7,233 bases of DNA from a virus (lineage: Duplodnaviria; Heunggongvirae; Uroviricota; Caudoviricetes), in IMG/VR virus record IMGVR_UViG_2531839030_000007, one strand, 5' to 3'. Each line of letters opens with the position of its first letter. The first letter of the stretch is position 1. Shown in pieces: positions 1-7,233 of the stretch. Both the position numbers and the translations under genes were made by a program. The notes beneath the pieces were generated by a model. It was not told the origin of the DNA and made no database searches. It saw nothing but the letters and a program-made list of their open reading frames with translations.

Positions 1-73
1 AACGTGTATTTTTAGTCATCCTGTTTACCTCTTTCTCAGGGAGTTTAGTCTCCAGGATTCCCGGGGCGGTTCA
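1..73 (-). mobile_element. Left end of an IS3-family insertion sequence (IS629/IS1203-like): terminal inverted repeat plus first codons of orfA; the element continues beyond the window start
   Basis: Read on the minus strand from position 73 the sequence is TGAACCGCCCCGGGAATCCTGGAGACTAAAC..., a TG-initiated terminal repeat I recognise as IS629-group. It is followed by an AGAGG Shine-Dalgarno and ATG at 19..17 opening ATG ACT AAA AAT ACA CGT (MTKNTR...), which matches the orfA N-terminus as I recall it. Tfa homology on the plus strand begins abruptly at about 74. Confidence 0.65.
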
Positions 74-189
74 ATCTGCTGGCCGGAACTAATGAATTTA
101 TTGGTGAAGGTGACGCATACATTCCGCCTCATACAGGTCTGCCAGCAAACAGTACCGATATTGCACCGCCAGATATTCCGGCTGGCTTC

Positions 190-606
190 GTGGCTGTTTT
201 CAACAGTAATGAGGCATCGTGGCATCTCGTTGAAGATCATCGGGGTAAAACGGTTTATGACGTGGCTTCCGGCGACGCGTTATTTATTTCTGAACTCGGT
301 CCGTTACCGGAAAATGTTACCTGGTTGTCGCCGGATGGAGAGTGTCAGAAGTGGAACGGCACATCCTGGGCGAAAGATGCAGAAGCAGAAAAACTGTTTC
401 GGGTACGGGAGGCAGAAGAAACAAAAAACAGCCTGATGCAGGTAGCCAGTGAGCATATTGCGCCACTTCAGGATGCCGTAGATTTGGATATTGCGACGGA
501 GGAAGAGGCATCGTTACTGGCTGCATGGAAGACATATCGGGTATTGTTGAATCGTGTTGATACAACAGTAGCAGCGGATGTTGAGTGGCCAGTCGCCCCA
601 CAATAA
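190..606 (+). CDS. tfa: Tail fibre assembly protein (Tfa family), 5'-truncated remnant; probably a pseudogene
   Basis: The translation (…[81 protein letters not shown]…VLLNRVD…) is near-identical to enterobacterial lambdoid/P2-type Tfa proteins as I recall them. The frame is open from 49 but has no ATG/GTG/TTG before the GTG at 190. The canonical Tfa N-terminus (about 16 residues, MAFRMSEQPRTIKIY in E. coli homologues) is not encoded; IS sequence takes its place. Stop is TAA at 604..606. Confidence 0.85.
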
Positions 607-613
607 AAAGAAA

Positions 614-641
614 AAGCCATCGACAGAAATATCGATGGCTT
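614..641. terminator. Bidirectional rho-independent terminator between the convergent tfa and acetyltransferase genes
   Basis: Perfect 10-bp inverted repeat AAGCCATCGA (614..623) / TCGATGGCTT (632..641) with an 8-nt loop. On the minus strand it is followed by TTTTTCTTTTTA, on the plus strand by TTATGTACTCTATTT. It lies 8 nt after the tfa stop and 9 nt after the minus-strand gene stop (650..652). Confidence 0.6.
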
Positions 642-649
642 TATGTACT

Positions 650-1222
650 CTATTTATACAATACAACACCACTCTTTTTAGTTATATATGTGCAGTTTGA
701 TGGTATATCTTTATTTATAAAAGACATTGCACCTATTTTTACATTATCCCCAATTTTACGTGATAATCCAATGATGCAACAATTAGCTCCGATATCAACG
801 TTACTACCAATTTTTACTCTTGAACTAGGCATATCACCATCTATCTGTCCAATGGTAGTATTCTGTCGTAATACCAGATTTTCACCCGCATCAACAGCAA
901 AATGAACAACAATTCCAGCATGATGGGGAATTGTCAACCCTTTTCCAATATTTGCGCCCAATCCTATTTCACAACCAAACTTGTTAATTATTTTACTGTT
1001 TAACTTTTTGGCTGCTTTCTTATGTAATTTATTACCATTAATATACATTTCGTTAGCCAACCGCCACCAGAAAAGGAAATTCCGGTTACGCTGCTTTTTC
1101 TCTCTTAAAAGCCTCCAGATATCCATACGTTTCCGCCGAATTACTTCATGTTTCCAGAAGTTTTTTAAATTAGTAGAGTTTCCAAATAAAACAAAGTGAA
1201 TTGCCATTAAGTAAGATAGCAC
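650..1222 (-). CDS. Hexapeptide-repeat (left-handed beta-helix) acetyltransferase, WcaB/CysE-like; AT-rich cargo gene
   Basis: The ORF is open 650..1255. Its translation carries the serine/sugar O-acetyltransferase signature FGCEIGLGANIGKGLTIPHHAGIVVH…GENLVLRQNTTIG…VKIGSNVDIGANCCIIG…IGDNVKIGAMSFINKDIP, preceded by an FWWRLA helical segment. Start is uncertain: GTG at 1222..1220 has AAGGAG 6 nt upstream (preferred); alternatives are GTG at 1255 and ATG at 1207. Hand counts of 60-nt blocks give about 25-32% G+C here against about 53% in a tail-gene block. Confidence 0.8.
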   Translation of the reverse strand: MLSYLMAIHFVLFGNSTNLKNFWKHEVIRRKRMDIWRLLREKKQRNRNFLFWWRLANEMYINGNKLHKKAAKKLNSKIINKFGCEIGLGANIGKGLTIPHHAGIVVHFAVDAGENLVLRQNTTIGQIDGDMPSSRVKIGSNVDIGANCCIIGLSRKIGDNVKIGAMSFINKDIPSNCTYITKKSGVVLYK

Positions 1223-1273
1223 GATAATCTCCTTAATTATTATTTCAGACCACACATGTTATAAGGTTAAGAG

Positions 1274-1302
1274 ATTATAAAATCCTGTTATTTGTTATTC
1301 AA
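1274..1302 (-). promoter_or_regulatory. Sigma70-type promoter for the acetyltransferase gene
   Basis: On the minus strand: -35 TTGAAT (1302..1297), a 17-bp spacer, and a perfect -10 TATAAT (1279..1274). There is an A/T-rich tract upstream of the -35. The predicted transcription start near 1267 lies upstream of the AAGGAG Shine-Dalgarno at 1234..1229. Confidence 0.45.
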
Positions 1303-1378
1303 AAACAATTTTCTGAGAAGGACATACAACAGCAAGTCGCCAGTCACCTTCATCAGGAAATTGGCGACATACGTTAAA

Positions 1379-1873
1379 TCAGAGCAGCCCCTTAACTGAG
1401 CTGGCCGCGCTATTAAGGGATGATGTCACCTTATCTTTGAAGCCGGACAGCATATCGCTGAACGATGAGGATTGCAGGCGCTCCCGCAAATCCTCATCAC
1501 AGCGTTCAAGAGTCAGTGAAAATTCTATCTTTTTCGCCTTACCGTAGCGATCAAACTCGGAGCGGGTCGTATTCGTTCCGGTCAGGACATACATGCCGTA
1601 AATCTGCCCGACGCCATCAATCAAAGGCCAAGGACGTCCTGTATATGCCTGCGTGGTCAACAACGACAGCGACACTTCGCCACCAGTAATCTCAGGATAA
1701 AGAACACCAGAAAGAACGATGCGATCATCACCTGCACCGATATACTGCCAGCTTGCTGAACGGTTAACGCGTTCATTTTTCACATGTCGCCAGCTTTTGT
1801 TTTGCTGTAACTGCTGATGCGGCAACGTGCGCAGCTCAAAAACAAACATGCCGTAGATCATCATCATGGCCAT
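1379..1873 (-). CDS. U: P2 gpU-like tail protein
   Basis: The translation shares blocks with P2 gpU as recalled (LSGVLYPEITGG, WPLIDGVGQIYGMYV, KIEFSLTLERCDE). GAGGAG lies just upstream of the ATG cluster at 1873..1861, and the upstream tape-measure fragment ends at 1880..1882. Stop is TGA at 1379..1381. Confidence 0.88.
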   Translation of the reverse strand: MAMMMIYGMFVFELRTLPHQQLQQNKSWRHVKNERVNRSASWQYIGAGDDRIVLSGVLYPEITGGEVSLSLLTTQAYTGRPWPLIDGVGQIYGMYVLTGTNTTRSEFDRYGKAKKIEFSLTLERCDEDLRERLQSSSFSDMLSGFKDKVTSSLNSAASSVKGLL

Positions 1874-1879
1874 GACTCC

Positions 1880-2716
1880 TCAATCTTTATCGTAAAAACT
1901 GCCACGCCTGGCACGGGCGCGCCGTTCCATTTCTGCCCTGACCATTTCGCCGACCAGTTTCGCCAGTTCGCGGGGATTCTGCGTAACAACGTTATGCAGA
2001 TGAACATGAATTTCACCGCCAAATCCGGAGGCAACAGGCTCCCGGTTACGGGAAGTTGCAGGAACTGATGCCACTGGCGATCGTATGGCCTCCACCACCG
2101 GGCGGGAGCTGGCCGCAACAACAGGGACCAGCGCCGGAGGCAGCGGAGCCGGGACCACGGGTGTGATATTAATTGCGGGGGCAGGCTTACTGACCTGCGC
2201 AATCTTCCGCTCCTGCCACTCCCCACGAACAGCAAGTGCGCGGGGCAGGTTCTTAAAGACAATATCGCCGGGGCCAATGCGTTTTTTTGTCTCATCAACC
2301 AGCTTACCTGTGTTATCAGCAATTTTGCTGAGTCTGCGTAGCGTGCCGGTATTGCTGTCTGTGAGAGGTTTGTTGTCTTTGGGTTTATCATCTCCGGTGC
2401 CATTGCTATTTCCCGCAGACTTCGGCGGATTGATTTTCGCAATGTCTCCCTGAAACAGAGCAACCTTGTCCTGAAGAATGGCCGCACGTTGTGCGTCTTC
2501 GATTTTCTTGCGCGCCCTTTCCGCTTCATCCGGAAGCACACCGAGTTTTTCAAGTATCCACGCCAGCGTATCCAGCAACATTTTTGCAGGCGTCAGAACA
2601 AGCTGTAACGCACCACCAAGAACGTTACCGAATACCTCGCCAGCACTGGTACATTTATCCAGCGTTTCCTTGCTGGACTCCATCGGTGACAGCAGCGATT
2701 TAAACCAGTTAAACAC
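1880..2716 (-). CDS. T: Tail tape measure protein, C-terminal portion, out of frame with the N-terminal portion (frameshifted gene or pseudogene)
   Basis: A 278-codon ORF that overlaps the 3' end of the 708-codon tape-measure ORF in a different frame. It sits directly between the tape measure and gpU, as the tape-measure C-terminus does in P2. Its frame opens just after a TGA within the overlap. Confidence 0.75.
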   Translation of the reverse strand: MFNWFKSLLSPMESSKETLDKCTSAGEVFGNVLGGALQLVLTPAKMLLDTLAWILEKLGVLPDEAERARKKIEDAQRAAILQDKVALFQGDIAKINPPKSAGNSNGTGDDKPKDNKPLTDSNTGTLRRLSKIADNTGKLVDETKKRIGPGDIVFKNLPRALAVRGEWQERKIAQVSKPAPAINITPVVPAPLPPALVPVVAASSRPVVEAIRSPVASVPATSRNREPVASGFGGEIHVHLHNVVTQNPRELAKLVGEMVRAEMERRARARRGSFYDKD

Positions 2717-4719
2717 CTGGCTGAACCGCTTCCGATTACGTCAAAAACAGGGCCAAACCGTTCAAAGGTGTCGCGCAACGGGGTCAGCCTTTCCATAATC
2801 CCGCTGAACACCCCGGCAAAGAAAGCCCTGATAGGATCCCAGTATTTCCAGATAAGAACGGCAGCTCCGGCAAGCGCAGCCACGATAAGACCAACCGGAC
2901 TGAACAACGCCCCGATAACGCCTCCCAGTAAAGAAACGGAACCCGTCACCATTCCCCATAGCGCAGGTAACACCCTGACGACATTCATTGACCGGGTAAG
3001 AATGTCAAAACCAAGACGCAGGGTGGCCAGCTTCCCGTAAAGCACCCCAATAACCAGCGACAACGAGCCAATCGTTGCAGTCATTGCCAGCAACGCACCG
3101 CCTGCTATCAGTAGCTGGCGCGTCAGTACCGGATGGGCCTGCGCCAGCGAGGTGATTTTTTCAAGCACCCGCGTGAGCCACTGCGTGACAGAACGCAGCG
3201 GACCGTCAACCAGATCACTGATGCGAATACGAAGACCTTCCCATGCGCTGTCGAGATTTTTCAGGTCCCCATCAAGATTATCAGCCATTACTTTTGCGAC
3301 GCGATCGGCCTCTCCCCTTGCCCCCTGCAATTCTCTGGTCAGTTTTTGCAGCTCTCCTGAACCAGCCGCCGCAACAAGCGTCTGCAAACCAACGAACGCC
3401 TCTTCTCCGGCGATGTCCTTGAAGAAGGAGACCTGGTCCACCTGTCCGTATTTTTGTGTCGCCTTATAGAGATCAAGCAGCACATCCTCCATCGGGCGCA
3501 TTTTGCCTCTGGCGTCAGCAACTGACACCCCCAGCTCTTTCAGTGCATCAGCCGCAGCTTTTGGCGGTGATGCAAGGCGGGACAGACTTGCGCGCATGGC
3601 CGTGCCAGCATCGCTTCCGCGAAGACCATTATTGGCAAGCATCCCGGCCATGGCCGCCGCTTCTTCAAGACTGATACCAAGTTTTGCGGCAACCGGACCG
3701 GTATACTTCATGGTTTCGCCCAGCGCGCGTAAATCAGTATTGGTCCGGGTAAATGCTGCTGTCAGCGTATCGCCCACCCGGTCCATTTGATCGGCTGTCA
3801 GGTTGAACTGTGTGAGGATATTGGAGCCTATATCAGCCGTCTCGCCGAGTTCGACGCCACCTGCCAGCGCCATATTAAGAACACCGGGCAATGCGGCCTG
3901 AATGGCCTGCGGAGTAAAACCAGCCATTGCCAGAAAGCTCTGCCCACTGGCGGCATCACTCGCAGTAAACTGTGTTTCAGCAAGTTTTAACGCCTGCTCA
4001 CGCAGCGCCTTAAACTGCGGGCTGTTTTTGTCGATTCGCGTCAGTGCCTGAACGCGGGACATCTCTTTGCCGAACCCGATCGCAGGCTGCAAAAAACGCC
4101 CGGCAGCATAGCCGCCCGCCGCTGCCGCACCAATTGCCAGCGCACCACCTGTTTTCAGTTTTCCCGCGGTTTCCTGCGCGTGCGAATACCGCTCACGCGC
4201 CTGCGTTACACGCGCAAGCGCCTGCCGTTCGCGTTCAAGCTGGTTGTTGTATTGTTCGGTGCGTCTGATGGCCTGCTGAATGGTGTTATCGCTGCCTGTC
4301 AGGGAAATGCCGTGGCGTTTCAGCTCTCCGCCAAGTTCCCTCATTTTCTGAATTTCCCGTGTGCGCGATTCATTCAGGCGTTCAAGCCGGGTGCTTAACT
4401 GCTGCATCAGCTTTTGTTGTTTTTCGCTGAGCACTGTACCCGTGCGTTGTAACTGATTAAGGGCGTTAAGCTGGCGTCGTGCTTTCACGATGCCAGCATC
4501 CGCTTTACTGACAGCGTCGCGGGCGCGCTCAAATGATCGCGCCTGACGCTCGAGATTTTTGATCGCCCCCTGCGTTCGCTGGATGGAGTCACCAAACTGC
4601 CCCATCAGGCGGCGTGCGTTTTCGGCAGGTCGGGTCAGCCTGTCAACGGCGCTGAAAGCGACCCGGATATCAAGAGTCTTCATTGTCTGCATTCCCGCTG
4701 CGAAGTGCCGCCCGCTCAC
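2593..4719 (-). CDS. T: Tail tape measure protein, N-terminal portion (P2 gpT-like)
   Basis: A 708-codon ORF with coiled-coil-like Ala/Gln/Arg/Leu-rich segments and C-terminal hydrophobic Gly/Ala-rich stretches typical of tape measures, located between E/E' and gpU. The last roughly 45 residues (…GSGSARCLTGLNRCCHRWSP…) look out of frame. The true start is probably ATG at 4692 or 4683, overlapping the E' stop at 4670..4672, rather than GTG at 4719. Confidence 0.88.
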   Translation of the reverse strand: MSGRHFAAGMQTMKTLDIRVAFSAVDRLTRPAENARRLMGQFGDSIQRTQGAIKNLERQARSFERARDAVSKADAGIVKARRQLNALNQLQRTGTVLSEKQQKLMQQLSTRLERLNESRTREIQKMRELGGELKRHGISLTGSDNTIQQAIRRTEQYNNQLERERQALARVTQARERYSHAQETAGKLKTGGALAIGAAAAGGYAAGRFLQPAIGFGKEMSRVQALTRIDKNSPQFKALREQALKLAETQFTASDAASGQSFLAMAGFTPQAIQAALPGVLNMALAGGVELGETADIGSNILTQFNLTADQMDRVGDTLTAAFTRTNTDLRALGETMKYTGPVAAKLGISLEEAAAMAGMLANNGLRGSDAGTAMRASLSRLASPPKAAADALKELGVSVADARGKMRPMEDVLLDLYKATQKYGQVDQVSFFKDIAGEEAFVGLQTLVAAAGSGELQKLTRELQGARGEADRVAKVMADNLDGDLKNLDSAWEGLRIRISDLVDGPLRSVTQWLTRVLEKITSLAQAHPVLTRQLLIAGGALLAMTATIGSLSLVIGVLYGKLATLRLGFDILTRSMNVVRVLPALWGMVTGSVSLLGGVIGALFSPVGLIVAALAGAAVLIWKYWDPIRAFFAGVFSGIMERLTPLRDTFERFGPVFDVIGSGSARCLTGLNRCCHRWSPARKRWINVPVLARYSVTFLVVRYSLF

Positions 4720-5199
4720 GCCAGCTAACCACTTCGCCGGGCGTCATCATGAAGATTTCGGCGGGCGACCAGTTAAAAATAACGGCAATATCTGCCACAA
4801 AGTCTTCTATGTGCTCAAAGCACACAACCGTGATCAGGCTTCCGTCGCCTGTTCGTTCTTCCCGCCAGAGTCCGCACCGCTCAAAAAATTTACGGCAACC
4901 ACACATAACTGAATAAAGTCACGGGATGCCATTTTTTTGATCGTCACTTCATCCAGTCGCGGTGATGTCACGCGTGACAGCAGCGTAAACATGGATTCCG
5001 CTTTCAGATTCAGCACATCAGACAGCGACAAATCTCGCAGAGATCCAGCCTGCTCAATAGCCCCGGTGATCTCCACATACGTGATTTTTTCGCCGCCTCG
5101 CTCAATTGGTTGGGTAAGTTTTACACCACGCTCACTGGTTTCTTTCACAGTGTCAGTAACTACCGTGTTTTCGGTATCGATGTTTTTCGTCTCTTTCAT
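4670..5199 (-). CDS. Tail assembly chaperone E+E' fusion, made by programmed -1 ribosomal frameshift (P2 gpE+E'-like)
   Basis: The E frame (5199..4882) joins the -1 frame (4882..4670) at the slippery heptamer T_TTT_TTG. The -1 frame encodes …SPAEIFMMTPGEVVSWRER…, and the predicted fusion is about 176 aa. The arrangement of E, E' and T matches the P2 FETUD operon. Confidence 0.7.
4834..5199 (-). CDS. E: Tail assembly chaperone E (P2 gpE-like)
   Basis: A 121-codon ORF containing PIERGGEKITYVEI. AGGAG lies 8 nt upstream of the ATG at 5199..5197. It sits between the tube and tape-measure genes. Confidence 0.85.
   Translation of the reverse strand: MKETKNIDTENTVVTDTVKETSERGVKLTQPIERGGEKITYVEITGAIEQAGSLRDLSLSDVLNLKAESMFTLLSRVTSPRLDEVTIKKMASRDFIQLCVVAVNFLSGADSGGKNEQATEA
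4882..4888 (-). other. Programmed -1 frameshift slippery heptamer T_TTT_TTG for E/E'
   Basis: The minus strand reads AAT TTT TTG in the E frame (codons N104-F105-L106). The -1 frame is open from this point to 4670, and the E frame terminates 15 codons later at 4834..4836. Confidence 0.7.
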
Positions 5200-5253
5200 C
5201 AGGAAACTCCTTTCAGTCAGAGGCGACGCACTGCGCCGCCTGCATATTACTTA

Positions 5254-5766
5254 TCAGCCAAGCCCAAGCGCGGAACGGATGCGATCGGGCACAATGTCCT
5301 TGCCGTCCTTCCGGTAAATGAAGTTCAGCAGGTCAATCTCCCACAACGGGCGATCGTTAACACTCAGCTTGTAGTAGGTGTTTTTAATGGCGTAAGTGTG
5401 TGATGTGGCTTCGCCCTGTTTGGCTTCCCCCATATCAATTTCCGTCACACGTCCGCGCATTTCGACTTCATACAGGTCGCTTTCATCATCGGTGTAGTAT
5501 TCCCCCGCAAAACGCAGTAGCGTGCCGTCAATCGTGCCGCCATACTTCAGGAACAGCTCACGAACTGCGCCCCCCATGACAAAGCTCGCATCAAGCGCGG
5601 AGTCGTCCAGGCCGAGGTCAATACTTACCGCACCCATCATGCCACCACCCCGGTAGCTGTCGGTTTTGCGCGTCAGTTTAGGCAGGGTGACGGACGTCAC
5701 CTTACCCACTTCGTTTTCACCATCCACAAACAGCGTAAAAAAGCGAAGATGTTTTGGTACAGCCAT
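5254..5766 (-). CDS. FII: Tail tube protein (P2 gpFII-like)
   Basis: The translation contains VTLPKLTRK…YRGGGM…DLGLDD…LRFAGEY…EVEMRGR, matching P2 FII blocks as recalled. GGGAGG lies upstream of the ATG at 5766..5764, which overlaps the FI stop as TGATG. Confidence 0.93.
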   Translation of the reverse strand: MAVPKHLRFFTLFVDGENEVGKVTSVTLPKLTRKTDSYRGGGMMGAVSIDLGLDDSALDASFVMGGAVRELFLKYGGTIDGTLLRFAGEYYTDDESDLYEVEMRGRVTEIDMGEAKQGEATSHTYAIKNTYYKLSVNDRPLWEIDLLNFIYRKDGKDIVPDRIRSALGLG

Positions 5767-6950
5767 CAGGCACCTCCCAGCACCGCAAATGCGGGACCAA
5801 AGAATTCATCAGTAAACGACTGGTAAAGCTCCATGTCTTCCAGCGGAGGAACGGGCGTATATTTGTAGCGAATACGCACACGCCCCTGACGTAAATTCGT
5901 GGTGCTGTTATCCTCGATGTCATACCAGCACTCCGCGCCAATCAGTTTCCCGGCAGTAACCAGTGAATCCAGTTTTGCCCTGATGGCACTGATAACATCC
6001 TTCACGTTCGCAGGTGTCAGTGGACTGTCGATGGTTTCAAACTGCGCTTCCGCAATTGAATCAGCCAGCACCTGTGCGGTTCGGGTATACACCTCAAAGA
6101 TGTAGGCGTTCGTTTCCGGTGTGCGGTTGCCCCAGAAGCGGAACCCGTTGCGACGAATAATGGTCGTGATTTCTTTGTTGTTGAGGCTGTTGGCATCACT
6201 GTCTTCGGCCTGCAACGACCAGAACACATGCCTCGACATCCCAAGCACATTTTTAACCGGAACGTTGGACAGCGATTTGTGCCAGCCCTGCTCATGGTCA
6301 ATGTACGCACGAAGGCCGCACGCATAAGCAGGCGCGGGGAACGTTTCGTTTTTGCCACTTTTCAGGTTGTAGGCGATGAAGTCAGGCCATAAGAGCATCA
6401 CCTCACGTTCGTTGAATTTCTGGCGGTAGGTAATCGCCTCAGCCATCGTGTTACAACCATGACATGTGGCATACACAAACGCGCGCAGTTTACCCGCAAT
6501 CACGCACAGGGATTTTGTTACCGCCTCCGTGTCCAGCTCCGGCGCGGCCAGAATACGCGGACGGTATCCGATGCTTTCATCCTGCTCTGCAACAAGCAGC
6601 GCATACATCCCCGTATAGCTGCCGTCAGATTCAGAACCACCGATAACCAGTTGATCCTGCGTCTTACCGCCTTCTTCTTTGTGTTCAGCCACGCGAACGA
6701 CGATCACTTTTGTGCTCACCTGGTCTGCGATAGCCTTAAGCGCACGATAAAGCGTCCCCGTAGTCCCGCATTTTCCCAGCACGTCATTGACGCGGGTCAG
6801 CAGTGTGGGCTTGTTCAGCGGGAACAGCTCCGCGTCCGCATCATCTGCCGTTGCCACGATACCGATAACACTGGAATCAACATCATTAATCGCTGTTACC
6901 AGGTCGGTACTTTCCGTAACACGGGCACCATGAAAACGAGTTTCACTCAT
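5766..6950 (-). CDS. FI: Contractile tail sheath protein (P2 gpFI-like)
   Basis: The 394-aa translation carries P2 FI blocks (ADDADAELFPLNKP, KLRAFVYA, WPDF, EQGWHKSLSNV, RRNGFRFWGNRT, YKYTPVPPLE). AAGGGG lies 9 nt upstream of the ATG at 6950..6948. Confidence 0.95.
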   Translation of the reverse strand: MSETRFHGARVTESTDLVTAINDVDSSVIGIVATADDADAELFPLNKPTLLTRVNDVLGKCGTTGTLYRALKAIADQVSTKVIVVRVAEHKEEGGKTQDQLVIGGSESDGSYTGMYALLVAEQDESIGYRPRILAAPELDTEAVTKSLCVIAGKLRAFVYATCHGCNTMAEAITYRQKFNEREVMLLWPDFIAYNLKSGKNETFPAPAYACGLRAYIDHEQGWHKSLSNVPVKNVLGMSRHVFWSLQAEDSDANSLNNKEITTIIRRNGFRFWGNRTPETNAYIFEVYTRTAQVLADSIAEAQFETIDSPLTPANVKDVISAIRAKLDSLVTAGKLIGAECWYDIEDNSTTNLRQGRVRIRYKYTPVPPLEDMELYQSFTDEFFGPAFAVLGGA

Positions 6951-7161
6951 AGCTTCAGCCCCTTGTATCCGTTAAATGATTCGGCAACAATCATCACCCA
7001 CCACGCGCGTAATCTCACCCCTGCGCCGTTCTCCCGCCACGGCGACAACAAAAAGCAGTAACCCCCTCCGCACGCACATGCGACCATGCCGCACAGGGAG
7101 GGAACAGATGACCGACACCACCATGCAATTGCTCAGTCAGGGCACAGACCACGTGAAAGTT

Positions 7162-7233
7162 TGTTCGCCTTAACCATCCTGATATTTGCTCTGGAGACCA
7201 TTTCATCTCCAGCTTTTCCAGAACAAGCTTTCG
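7162..7233 (-). mobile_element. Internal fragment of an IS30-family transposase gene, truncated at about 7161; continues beyond the window end
   Basis: The minus-strand frame running through 7233..7162 encodes RKLVLEKLEMKWSPEQISGWLRRT, which matches the IS30 transposase segment (…LRKLVLEKLEMKWSPEQISGWLRRTKPRQK…) as I recall it, including the WSPEQISG hallmark. Below 7162 the frame continues as NFHVVCALTEQ…, which is unrelated, and no other frame continues the IS30 sequence. Confidence 0.6.

Follow-up and report, generated by a model that had tools for sequence, protein, structure and literature searches.

At one end of the viral DNA analysed here (7,233 nucleotides, referred to in its entirety as the window), an IS30-family transposase gene breaks off abruptly and is continued by phage DNA. 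This raises the question of what made the break, that is, whether the element was cut short by its own transposition activity, by an ordinary deletion or by another agent, and whether the junction has any bearing on the phage genes next to it.

The window is part of a decayed P2-like prophage

Over positions 1–7160, the window is 100% identical to a locus of EDL933 (L002 2052–9211; coordinates preceded by L002, L001 and L005 refer to the loci of EDL933, 93_161312 and FHI_NMBU_03, respectively), and the tail-gene remnant of the P2-family prophage adjoins leuZ-cysT-glyW, pgsA and uvrC. Genes for a contractile tail of the P2 type are present in the order found in P88, as judged from Pfam matches, the gene order of L005 and the identity of the sheath gene and gene D, and on these grounds the window is a decayed P88/P2-like prophage of E. 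coli O157:H7. The prophage is most likely Sp13/CP-933T, as inferred from the published account in which it is the sole P2-like defective prophage of O157:H7 Sakai/EDL933 (PMC2669165). The window carries the following features:

1..73, minus strand: divergent copy of an IS629/IS1203-like element (IS3 family), represented by its left inverted repeat and initial codons
76..606, plus strand: tail-fibre assembly gene, its 5' end cut by the IS629-like element (Pfam Caudo_TAP, annotation)
650..1255, minus strand: hexapeptide acetyltransferase ‘cargo’ gene (low GC of 0.33–0.35, Pfam)
1379..1873, minus strand: gpU-like tail protein (Pfam Phage_P2_GpU, E=1.5e-38)
1880..5199, minus strand: tail chaperone E/E' and tape-measure gene (Pfam PhageMin_Tail; weak Phage_TAC_7)
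5254..5766, minus strand: tail tube gene, FII-like, 170 aa (Pfam Phage_tube, E=1e-47)
5766..6950, minus strand: tail sheath gene, FI-like, 394 aa (Pfam Phage_sheath_1, Gp18_domIII_N, Phage_sheath_1C)
6951..7107, no strand: intergenic region from which the sheath gene (minus) and gene D (plus) diverge, a natural arrangement
7108..7160, plus strand: first 53 nt of the phage late-control gene D, MTDTTMQLLSQGTDHVK... (RefSeq EDL933, L005 open reading frame, translation)
7161..7233, minus strand: internal IS30 fragment, InsI codons 132–155 (74/74 nt identity, canonical nt 456–528/529)

The first-pass annotation had placed the end of an IS3-family element at the side of the window opposite to the IS30 fragment, and an IS629-like left inverted repeat is indeed found there, positions 1–73 being 95% identical to IS1203. 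In closed genomes, this left copy comprises 1057 of the 1310 bp of the element, its far (outer) end being missing. Both ends of the window thus reach 73–74 nt into repeated IS sequence, as would be expected of a contig that was assembled from short reads on a de Bruijn graph and ended where repeats began; the window may thus represent one complete contig of a draft genome.

The acetyltransferase gene (650–1255, minus strand), annotated as serine O-acetyltransferase, lies in an island of low GC content (0.33–0.36 at positions 600–1400 versus about 0.55), and a hairpin at about 605–640 is located just past its 3' end, beside the stop codon at which the convergent tail-fibre assembly gene ends. 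The acetyltransferase gene had been referred to as cargo, but it is found at the same position in the intact relative in FHI_NMBU_03, where no IS is present, and hence belongs to the phage and was not brought in by an IS. It is conserved in that relative and looks like a phage moron.

Among the tail genes, the tape-measure gene is frameshifted and split into two overlapping open reading frames (2593–4719 and 1880–2716); RefSeq labels it frameshifted in O157:H7 genomes, whereas the intact relative carries a single gene of 2808 nt. The match of the E-type tail chaperone to Phage_TAC_7 is weak and falls under the Pfam cut-off. In the intact prophage and in deposited genomes of P88/Xuanwuvirus phages, the tail operon from the sheath gene to U is encoded on the strand opposite to the baseplate and fibre genes, D and ogr, an orientation inverted relative to that in P2. 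The intergenic region in front of the sheath gene (6951–7107) is 100% identical to that of the intact prophage of FHI_NMBU_03 and was left untouched by the deletion discussed below; a promoter and terminator scan of positions 6900–7233 found neither a sigma-70 consensus nor a terminator.

Both ends of the prophage segment are also matched, at 99.7–100%, by about 352.8–362.4 kb of NZ_CP114132.1, a 438-kb ‘plasmid’ record from pig gut, in which an IS30 copy (1169 bp) and an IS629 stub with a partition gene lie about 7.3 kb apart. This record may represent a misassigned or chimeric replicon.

An IS30 fragment fused to phage gene D

The assignment of the terminal fragment to the IS30 family holds at both the nucleotide and the protein level. 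Positions 7160–7233, read on the minus strand, match the IS30 copy at the EDL933 locus at 74 of 74 nucleotides (E=4e-38) and correspond to nt 456–529 of canonical, 1221-bp IS30, for which the copy of pSFO157 was taken as the reference (the 279–281 kb region of K-12 holds only an IS30B fragment). The minus-strand translation of 7162–7233, RKLVLEKLEMKWSPEQISGWLRRT, is identical at all 24 residues to amino acids 132–155 of the 383-residue transposase InsI. In the full-length protein, Pfam recognizes an HTH_38 domain (aa 58–98) and an rve/DDE catalytic core (aa 229–320), and the window fragment falls between the two. The fused open reading frame reconstructed from the window and L001 retains HTH_38 only, rve having been deleted. 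As for the ends of the element, the right inverted repeat (L002 9426–9451) lies within the deleted segment, whereas the left one is located beyond the window end and is present in 93_161312, in which the remaining left part of IS30 continues past that point. Lacking a catalytic domain, a right end and a start codon, the stub is, to judge from its sequence, an inert relic.

The abrupt stop in mid-gene, previously placed at about 7162, is real, and comparison with parental sequences moves it by just 1–2 nt, to 7160/7161, with the T at 7160 being compatible with both flanks. No further IS30 sequence was detected below the junction in any frame, shifted frames included: the next tblastn match has an E value of 0.23, and blastn-short returned chance 10–11-mers only. 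In the first-pass annotation, the neighbour of the fragment was given as the region upstream of the sheath gene. The DNA in question does lie upstream of, and divergent to, that gene, but it is itself coding and corresponds to nt 1–53 (17 2/3 codons) of gene D, which begins with the ATG at 7108, 157 bp upstream of the sheath gene and in the divergent orientation. The partner of IS30 at the junction is thus codon 18 of gene D, a gene that is complete in intact relatives (full open reading frame in L005).

The ancestral arrangement and a 904-bp deletion

Comparison of strains, which the first-pass annotation had proposed as a way to recover the ancestral junction, allowed us to reconstruct it as the EDL933-type arrangement. 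The gene D fragment of EDL933 stops after 267 nt, at the right inverted repeat of an IS30 that still has both of its ends (L002 9426–10597) and whose repeats match at 23 of 26 positions. The dinucleotide CT is found on both sides of this IS30, whereas the intact gene D of FHI_NMBU_03 (L005) carries a single CT across the site. The parent IS30 is thus shown to be a simple insertion into gene D with a 2-bp target duplication, one copy of which is deleted in the window. Relative to the canonical element, 46 bp are missing from the EDL933 copy, and with them its ribosome-binding site, start codon and initial codons; the same 46-bp deletion is common to 08-3914/CEC13004 and 93_161312, which are 100% identical across it.

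Other peculiarities of this copy and its surroundings were noted along the way. The EDL933 IS30 has a 3-bp deletion that changes HELDLV to HEDLV, and the clade 8 copies of 57_142493 (L009) and CEC13002 (L011) differ from EDL933 by a 3-bp indel, perhaps this very HELDLV/HEDLV change. To the right of IS30, gene D persists for only about 77 bp (L002 10598–10672 versus L005 12422–12504), with 92.8% identity to L005 and a 6-bp gap, as compared with 100% identity in the left part; past this stretch and before the tRNA genes, gene D is truncated a second time.

Set against this arrangement, window positions 7160–7233 correspond to L002 10115–10188 (100% identity), and the 904 bp of L002 9212–10115 are missing. 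Of the lost DNA, 214 bp belonged to gene D and 690 bp to IS30, which was thereby deprived of its right inverted repeat and of its complete rve/DDE core; the earlier suggestion of an IS30 truncated by deletion is borne out. The intact junction between gene D and the right end of IS30 was found in 263 of 5426 complete E. coli genomes, EDL933 among them, whereas the window-type junction occurs in a single one, 93_161312 (AP026101). Even these two sequences differ at the junction, where a run of three T in the window (7161–7163) corresponds to four in AP026101 (L001 9212–9215). The one-base difference shifts the frame past the junction, the fused open reading frame measuring 198 aa with the TTT of the window and 159 aa with the TTTT of AP026101; it could stem from a distinct excision event, from slippage at a later time or from an error in sequencing. 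Searches of genome_contigs and metagenome_contigs yielded no match to the exact junction with either TTT or TTTT, and the 63-aa in-window junction open reading frame had no record in the assembly collection.

IS1203 occupies the junction in related strains

The origin of the deletion is illuminated by three complete genomes, 08-3914, 06-3462 and CEC13004, in which the match to the prophage side is one base longer than in the others. Two of the loci, those of 08-3914 and CEC13004, were read and do not differ from each other; both contain a full-length, 1310-bp IS1203/IS629 exactly at the junction (for 06-3462, the left junction only was seen, from search hits). The arrangement is ...GAAAGT / TGAACCGCC...GGCGGTTCA / GGTTTTGTTCGCC..., where the slashes mark the ends of IS1203. 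Its left flank ends at L002 9211, the same base as at the window junction, and its right flank begins at L002 10112, inside IS30 and three bases before the junction of 93_161312; in other words, related genomes carry an IS at the precise position of the presumed scar, between L002 9211 and 10112. All four strains, that is, 93_161312, 08-3914, 06-3462 and CEC13004, belong to the O157:H7 clade 8 subgroup SG8_31A (PMC9997748).

Two details of these loci constrain the order of events. First, the bases flanking IS1203 in 08-3914 and CEC13004 are AGT and GGT, so that a target duplication is absent, which points to a deletion of about 900 bp adjacent to IS1203. Second, the IS1203-bearing strains keep the IS30 bases GG, which are absent from both the window and 93_161312; accordingly, the IS1203 state cannot have come from the scar by insertion.

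The joint left in 93_161312 is exactly what removal of IS1203 at a short repeat would leave. One copy of the trinucleotide GTT is formed by the last GT of the left flank and the first T of IS1203, and the other resides in the GGTTTT on the right; joining at GTT yields AAAGTTTTGTTCG, the junction of 93_161312. The joint of the window, AAAGTTTGTTCG, would call instead for joining at TT, for slippage by one T afterwards or for a discrepancy in base calling.

IS1203 has also entered the same IS30 copy elsewhere. In 57_142493, it is a simple insertion flanked by ACC as a clean 3-bp duplication; in strain 472, TCT borders it left and right, and the right side has two additional bases. CEC13002, a fifth member of SG8_31A, carries an independent IS1203 insertion accompanied by a 291-bp adjacent deletion, in which the other end of IS30 was lost. 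A simple insertion at L002 9209–9211 or 10112–14, free of a deletion, which would be the first intermediate if insertion preceded the deletion, was encountered in no genome. The IS1203 copies are mutually identical and, consequently, their sequences cannot be used to trace descent. We also considered derivation of the IS1203 state from an insertion of the 57_142493 type, at the right repeat of IS30, and set it aside as less parsimonious, two deletions being required; the 57_142493-type junction is found in one piece in 57_142493 only, with a near-identical one in UTME-4.

A proposed history of the junction

Taken together, these observations make it likely that the junction is the scar of an IS1203 insertion followed by an adjacent deletion of approximately 900 bp and imprecise excision of the element. 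The order of events proposed here rests on the logic of the junctions and on shared subgroup membership. The first two steps can be read from the parental locus: IS30 entered phage gene D at codon 89, as shown by the CT target duplication, and this copy decayed through the loss of 46 bp, as shown by its missing ribosome-binding site and start codon. The following steps are suggested by other members of the subgroup. Within SG8_31A, one sublineage would have acquired a 1310-bp IS1203/IS629 at or next to the future junction, and a deletion adjacent to it would have taken about 900 bp, namely, 214 bp of D, the right repeat of IS30 and the DDE core, leaving the arrangement ...GAAAGT / IS1203 / GGTTTTGTTCGCC..., devoid of a target duplication. 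IS1203 would subsequently have been excised imprecisely at a short repeat, GTT in 93_161312 and, in the window, TT (or a later slip of one T), with the loss of 3–4 further bases and the fusion of nt 53 of gene D to nt 529 of IS30. Imprecision would be expected at this step because the matching copy of the target duplication had already been deleted. The residual IS30 stub would have remained inert, with no evident functional consequence.

Each of these processes has precedents. Insertion of IS629, adjacent deletion and IEE-promoted excision in O157 are attributed to Ooka 2009 and Kusumoto 2011, as cited in PMC9943667 and bioRxiv 10.1101/2023.06.07.543989. Excision of IS629 is transposase-dependent and promoted by IEE, and deletions adjacent to IS629 range from a few nucleotides to >40 kb and involve microhomology joining (PMC9943667; bioRxiv 10.1101/2023.06.07.543989); furthermore, IEE and IS629 co-occur in almost all STEC of seropathotype A (PMC9943667). 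The excision of IS1203 at the present locus was probably of this transposase-dependent, IEE-promoted type described for O157. If this model is true, IEE- and transposase-dependent excision would yield AAAGTTTTG and, possibly, AAAGTTTG joints.

Alternative explanations

The strongest competitor, although in our estimation an unlikely one, is a spontaneous deletion in a single step, by slippage or illegitimate recombination at microhomology, in which IS1203 took no part and the IS1203-bearing strains represent an unrelated or later event. A microhomology of 1–2 bp (GT/T) at the junction speaks for such a deletion, as does the interrupted match shared by the parental sites, ACGTGAAAGT versus ACGTG-GT. 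However, IS1203 of the same subgroup has the identical left breakpoint and a right breakpoint that is just 3 bp off, and it is very unlikely that two independent events would fall so close to each other within about 1 kb; in addition, the retention of GG and the lack of a target duplication in the IS1203 state exclude a later insertion into the scar. A one-step deletion guided by ACGTG...GT was in fact our first idea, which lost weight once members of the subgroup proved to carry IS1203 at the very position of the junction.

A less probable possibility, to which we give little credence, is an assembly artefact, in which the source genome does carry IS1203 and the element was lost when the assembly collapsed it. 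The window ends do resemble those of a short-read contig, and the 93_161312 chromosome was subject to manual curation (PMC9997748). Nevertheless, a short-read contig of an IS1203-bearing genome would run into the end of IS1203 rather than into IS30, a clean collapse would give AAAGT/GGTTTTG with no loss of 3–4 further bases, and the IS-free junction is present in two different sequences, the window and AP026101.

Still more improbable is the notion, raised by the first-pass annotation, that IS30 brought about its own truncation, either by a transposase-mediated adjacent deletion or by an (IS30)2-type rearrangement. Adjacent deletions mediated by a transposase begin at the end of the IS, and the element itself stays whole. 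At the present locus, IS30 is broken internally and has lost its right inverted repeat together with 690 bp of its interior, the local copy has no start codon and, in strains of the same subgroup, it is IS1203 that is found at the break. It is true that deletions and microhomology losses are known for the IS30 family, for instance, for ISApl1 in Tn6330 (bioRxiv review), but the ISApl1-type losses span approximately one IS length, whereas here 214 bp of flanking DNA disappeared together with part of the IS.

Finally, although the tail module is, as had been pointed out, bracketed by IS-derived sequence at both of its ends, its interpretation as a composite mobile unit in which the IS629-like and IS30 stubs carry the tail genes and the acetyltransferase gene is scarcely tenable: the flanking elements are not the same IS and come from different families (IS3 and IS30), the left copy is devoid of its outer end and the IS30 stub of its inner end and DDE core, all of the loci that were read have the block at one and the same chromosomal position, with no sign of movement, and the acetyltransferase ‘cargo’ is native to the phage. 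The junction counts, 264 on the left versus 263 + 1 on the right, reveal no partial loss and fit a stable block.

Repeated IS1203 insertion into a dead IS30 copy

Beyond the junction itself, the defective IS30 (L002 9426–10597) has apparently been hit repeatedly by IS1203/IS629, as judged from the spans of joined search hits. Insertion points were located near L002 9452/3, 9483, 9495, 9532, 9543, 9576, about 9838, 9903 and 10040, to which two deletion-associated copies have to be added, and the IS30 copy is hit in about 22–23 of roughly 264 genomes. Sites at four loci (L006, L008, L009 and L011) were checked at the sequence level. With at least nine IS1203 positions within about 1.2 kb across roughly 264 genomes, it is conceivable, if doubtful, that the dead IS30 copy serves as a preferred landing site, or ‘trap’, for IS1203/IS629 in O157:H7. 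Should this be the case, natural isolates would hold every stage of a cycle of insertion, adjacent deletion and excision, and the TTT and TTTT joints would represent two independent products of excision from one intermediate.

The biological weight of the junction itself is small. The deletion removed only DNA of a pseudogene and a dead IS, the tail genes and the region upstream of them are unaffected and no consequential gene was hit. All of the components and processes involved are already known and, in this respect, what we describe is ordinary IS biology. The locus nonetheless provides a natural example, with the intermediates kept in strains of the same subgroup, of how one IS erodes another and leaves behind nothing but a microhomology joint. 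The junction could also serve as a marker of a lineage within O157:H7 clade 8 subgroup SG8_31A. More generally, it calls for caution in that an abrupt junction inside an IS need not be the work of that IS.

Comparison with known systems

With respect to its prophage background, the window resembles Sp13/CP-933T in being a tail-gene remnant of a P2-family prophage that lacks most of the morphogenetic genes, but its lineage is short of a further 904 bp, comprising the gene D fragment and the right part of IS30. The adjacent and divergent sheath gene and gene D, with 96–98% nucleotide identity, are shared with P88/Xuanwuvirus, of which the window keeps only the tail-fibre assembly fragment, the acetyltransferase gene, U, T, E, FII, FI and 53 nt of D. 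The same gene order, the acetyltransferase gene included, is seen in FHI_NMBU_03, whose prophage is intact.

The parent copy of IS30 conforms to the prototype of the family (1221 bp, InsI of 383 aa) in possessing inverted repeats and a 2-bp target duplication. By contrast, the present locus keeps only nt 1–529 (nt 456–529 within the window), has neither the right repeat nor the rve/DDE core, and is also devoid of the 46 bp that carry the start codon. The loss of ISApl1, another member of the IS30 family, from Tn6330/mcr-1 parallels this case as an instance of IS30-family decay with joints at microhomologies of 2–4 bp. However, there the whole length of the IS is lost, whereas here part of the IS disappeared along with its flank, and a second IS, IS1203, appears to have been the agent. 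A further parallel is offered by the IS629/IEE system of O157 itself, with which the locus shares the presence, in strains of the same subgroup, of IS1203 at the exact site and without a target duplication, as well as an IS-free derivative joined at a microhomology of 2–3 bp. It departs from that system in the apparent imprecision of excision, at the cost of 3–4 extra bases, and in that the dependence on IEE is here presumed from the O157 precedent.
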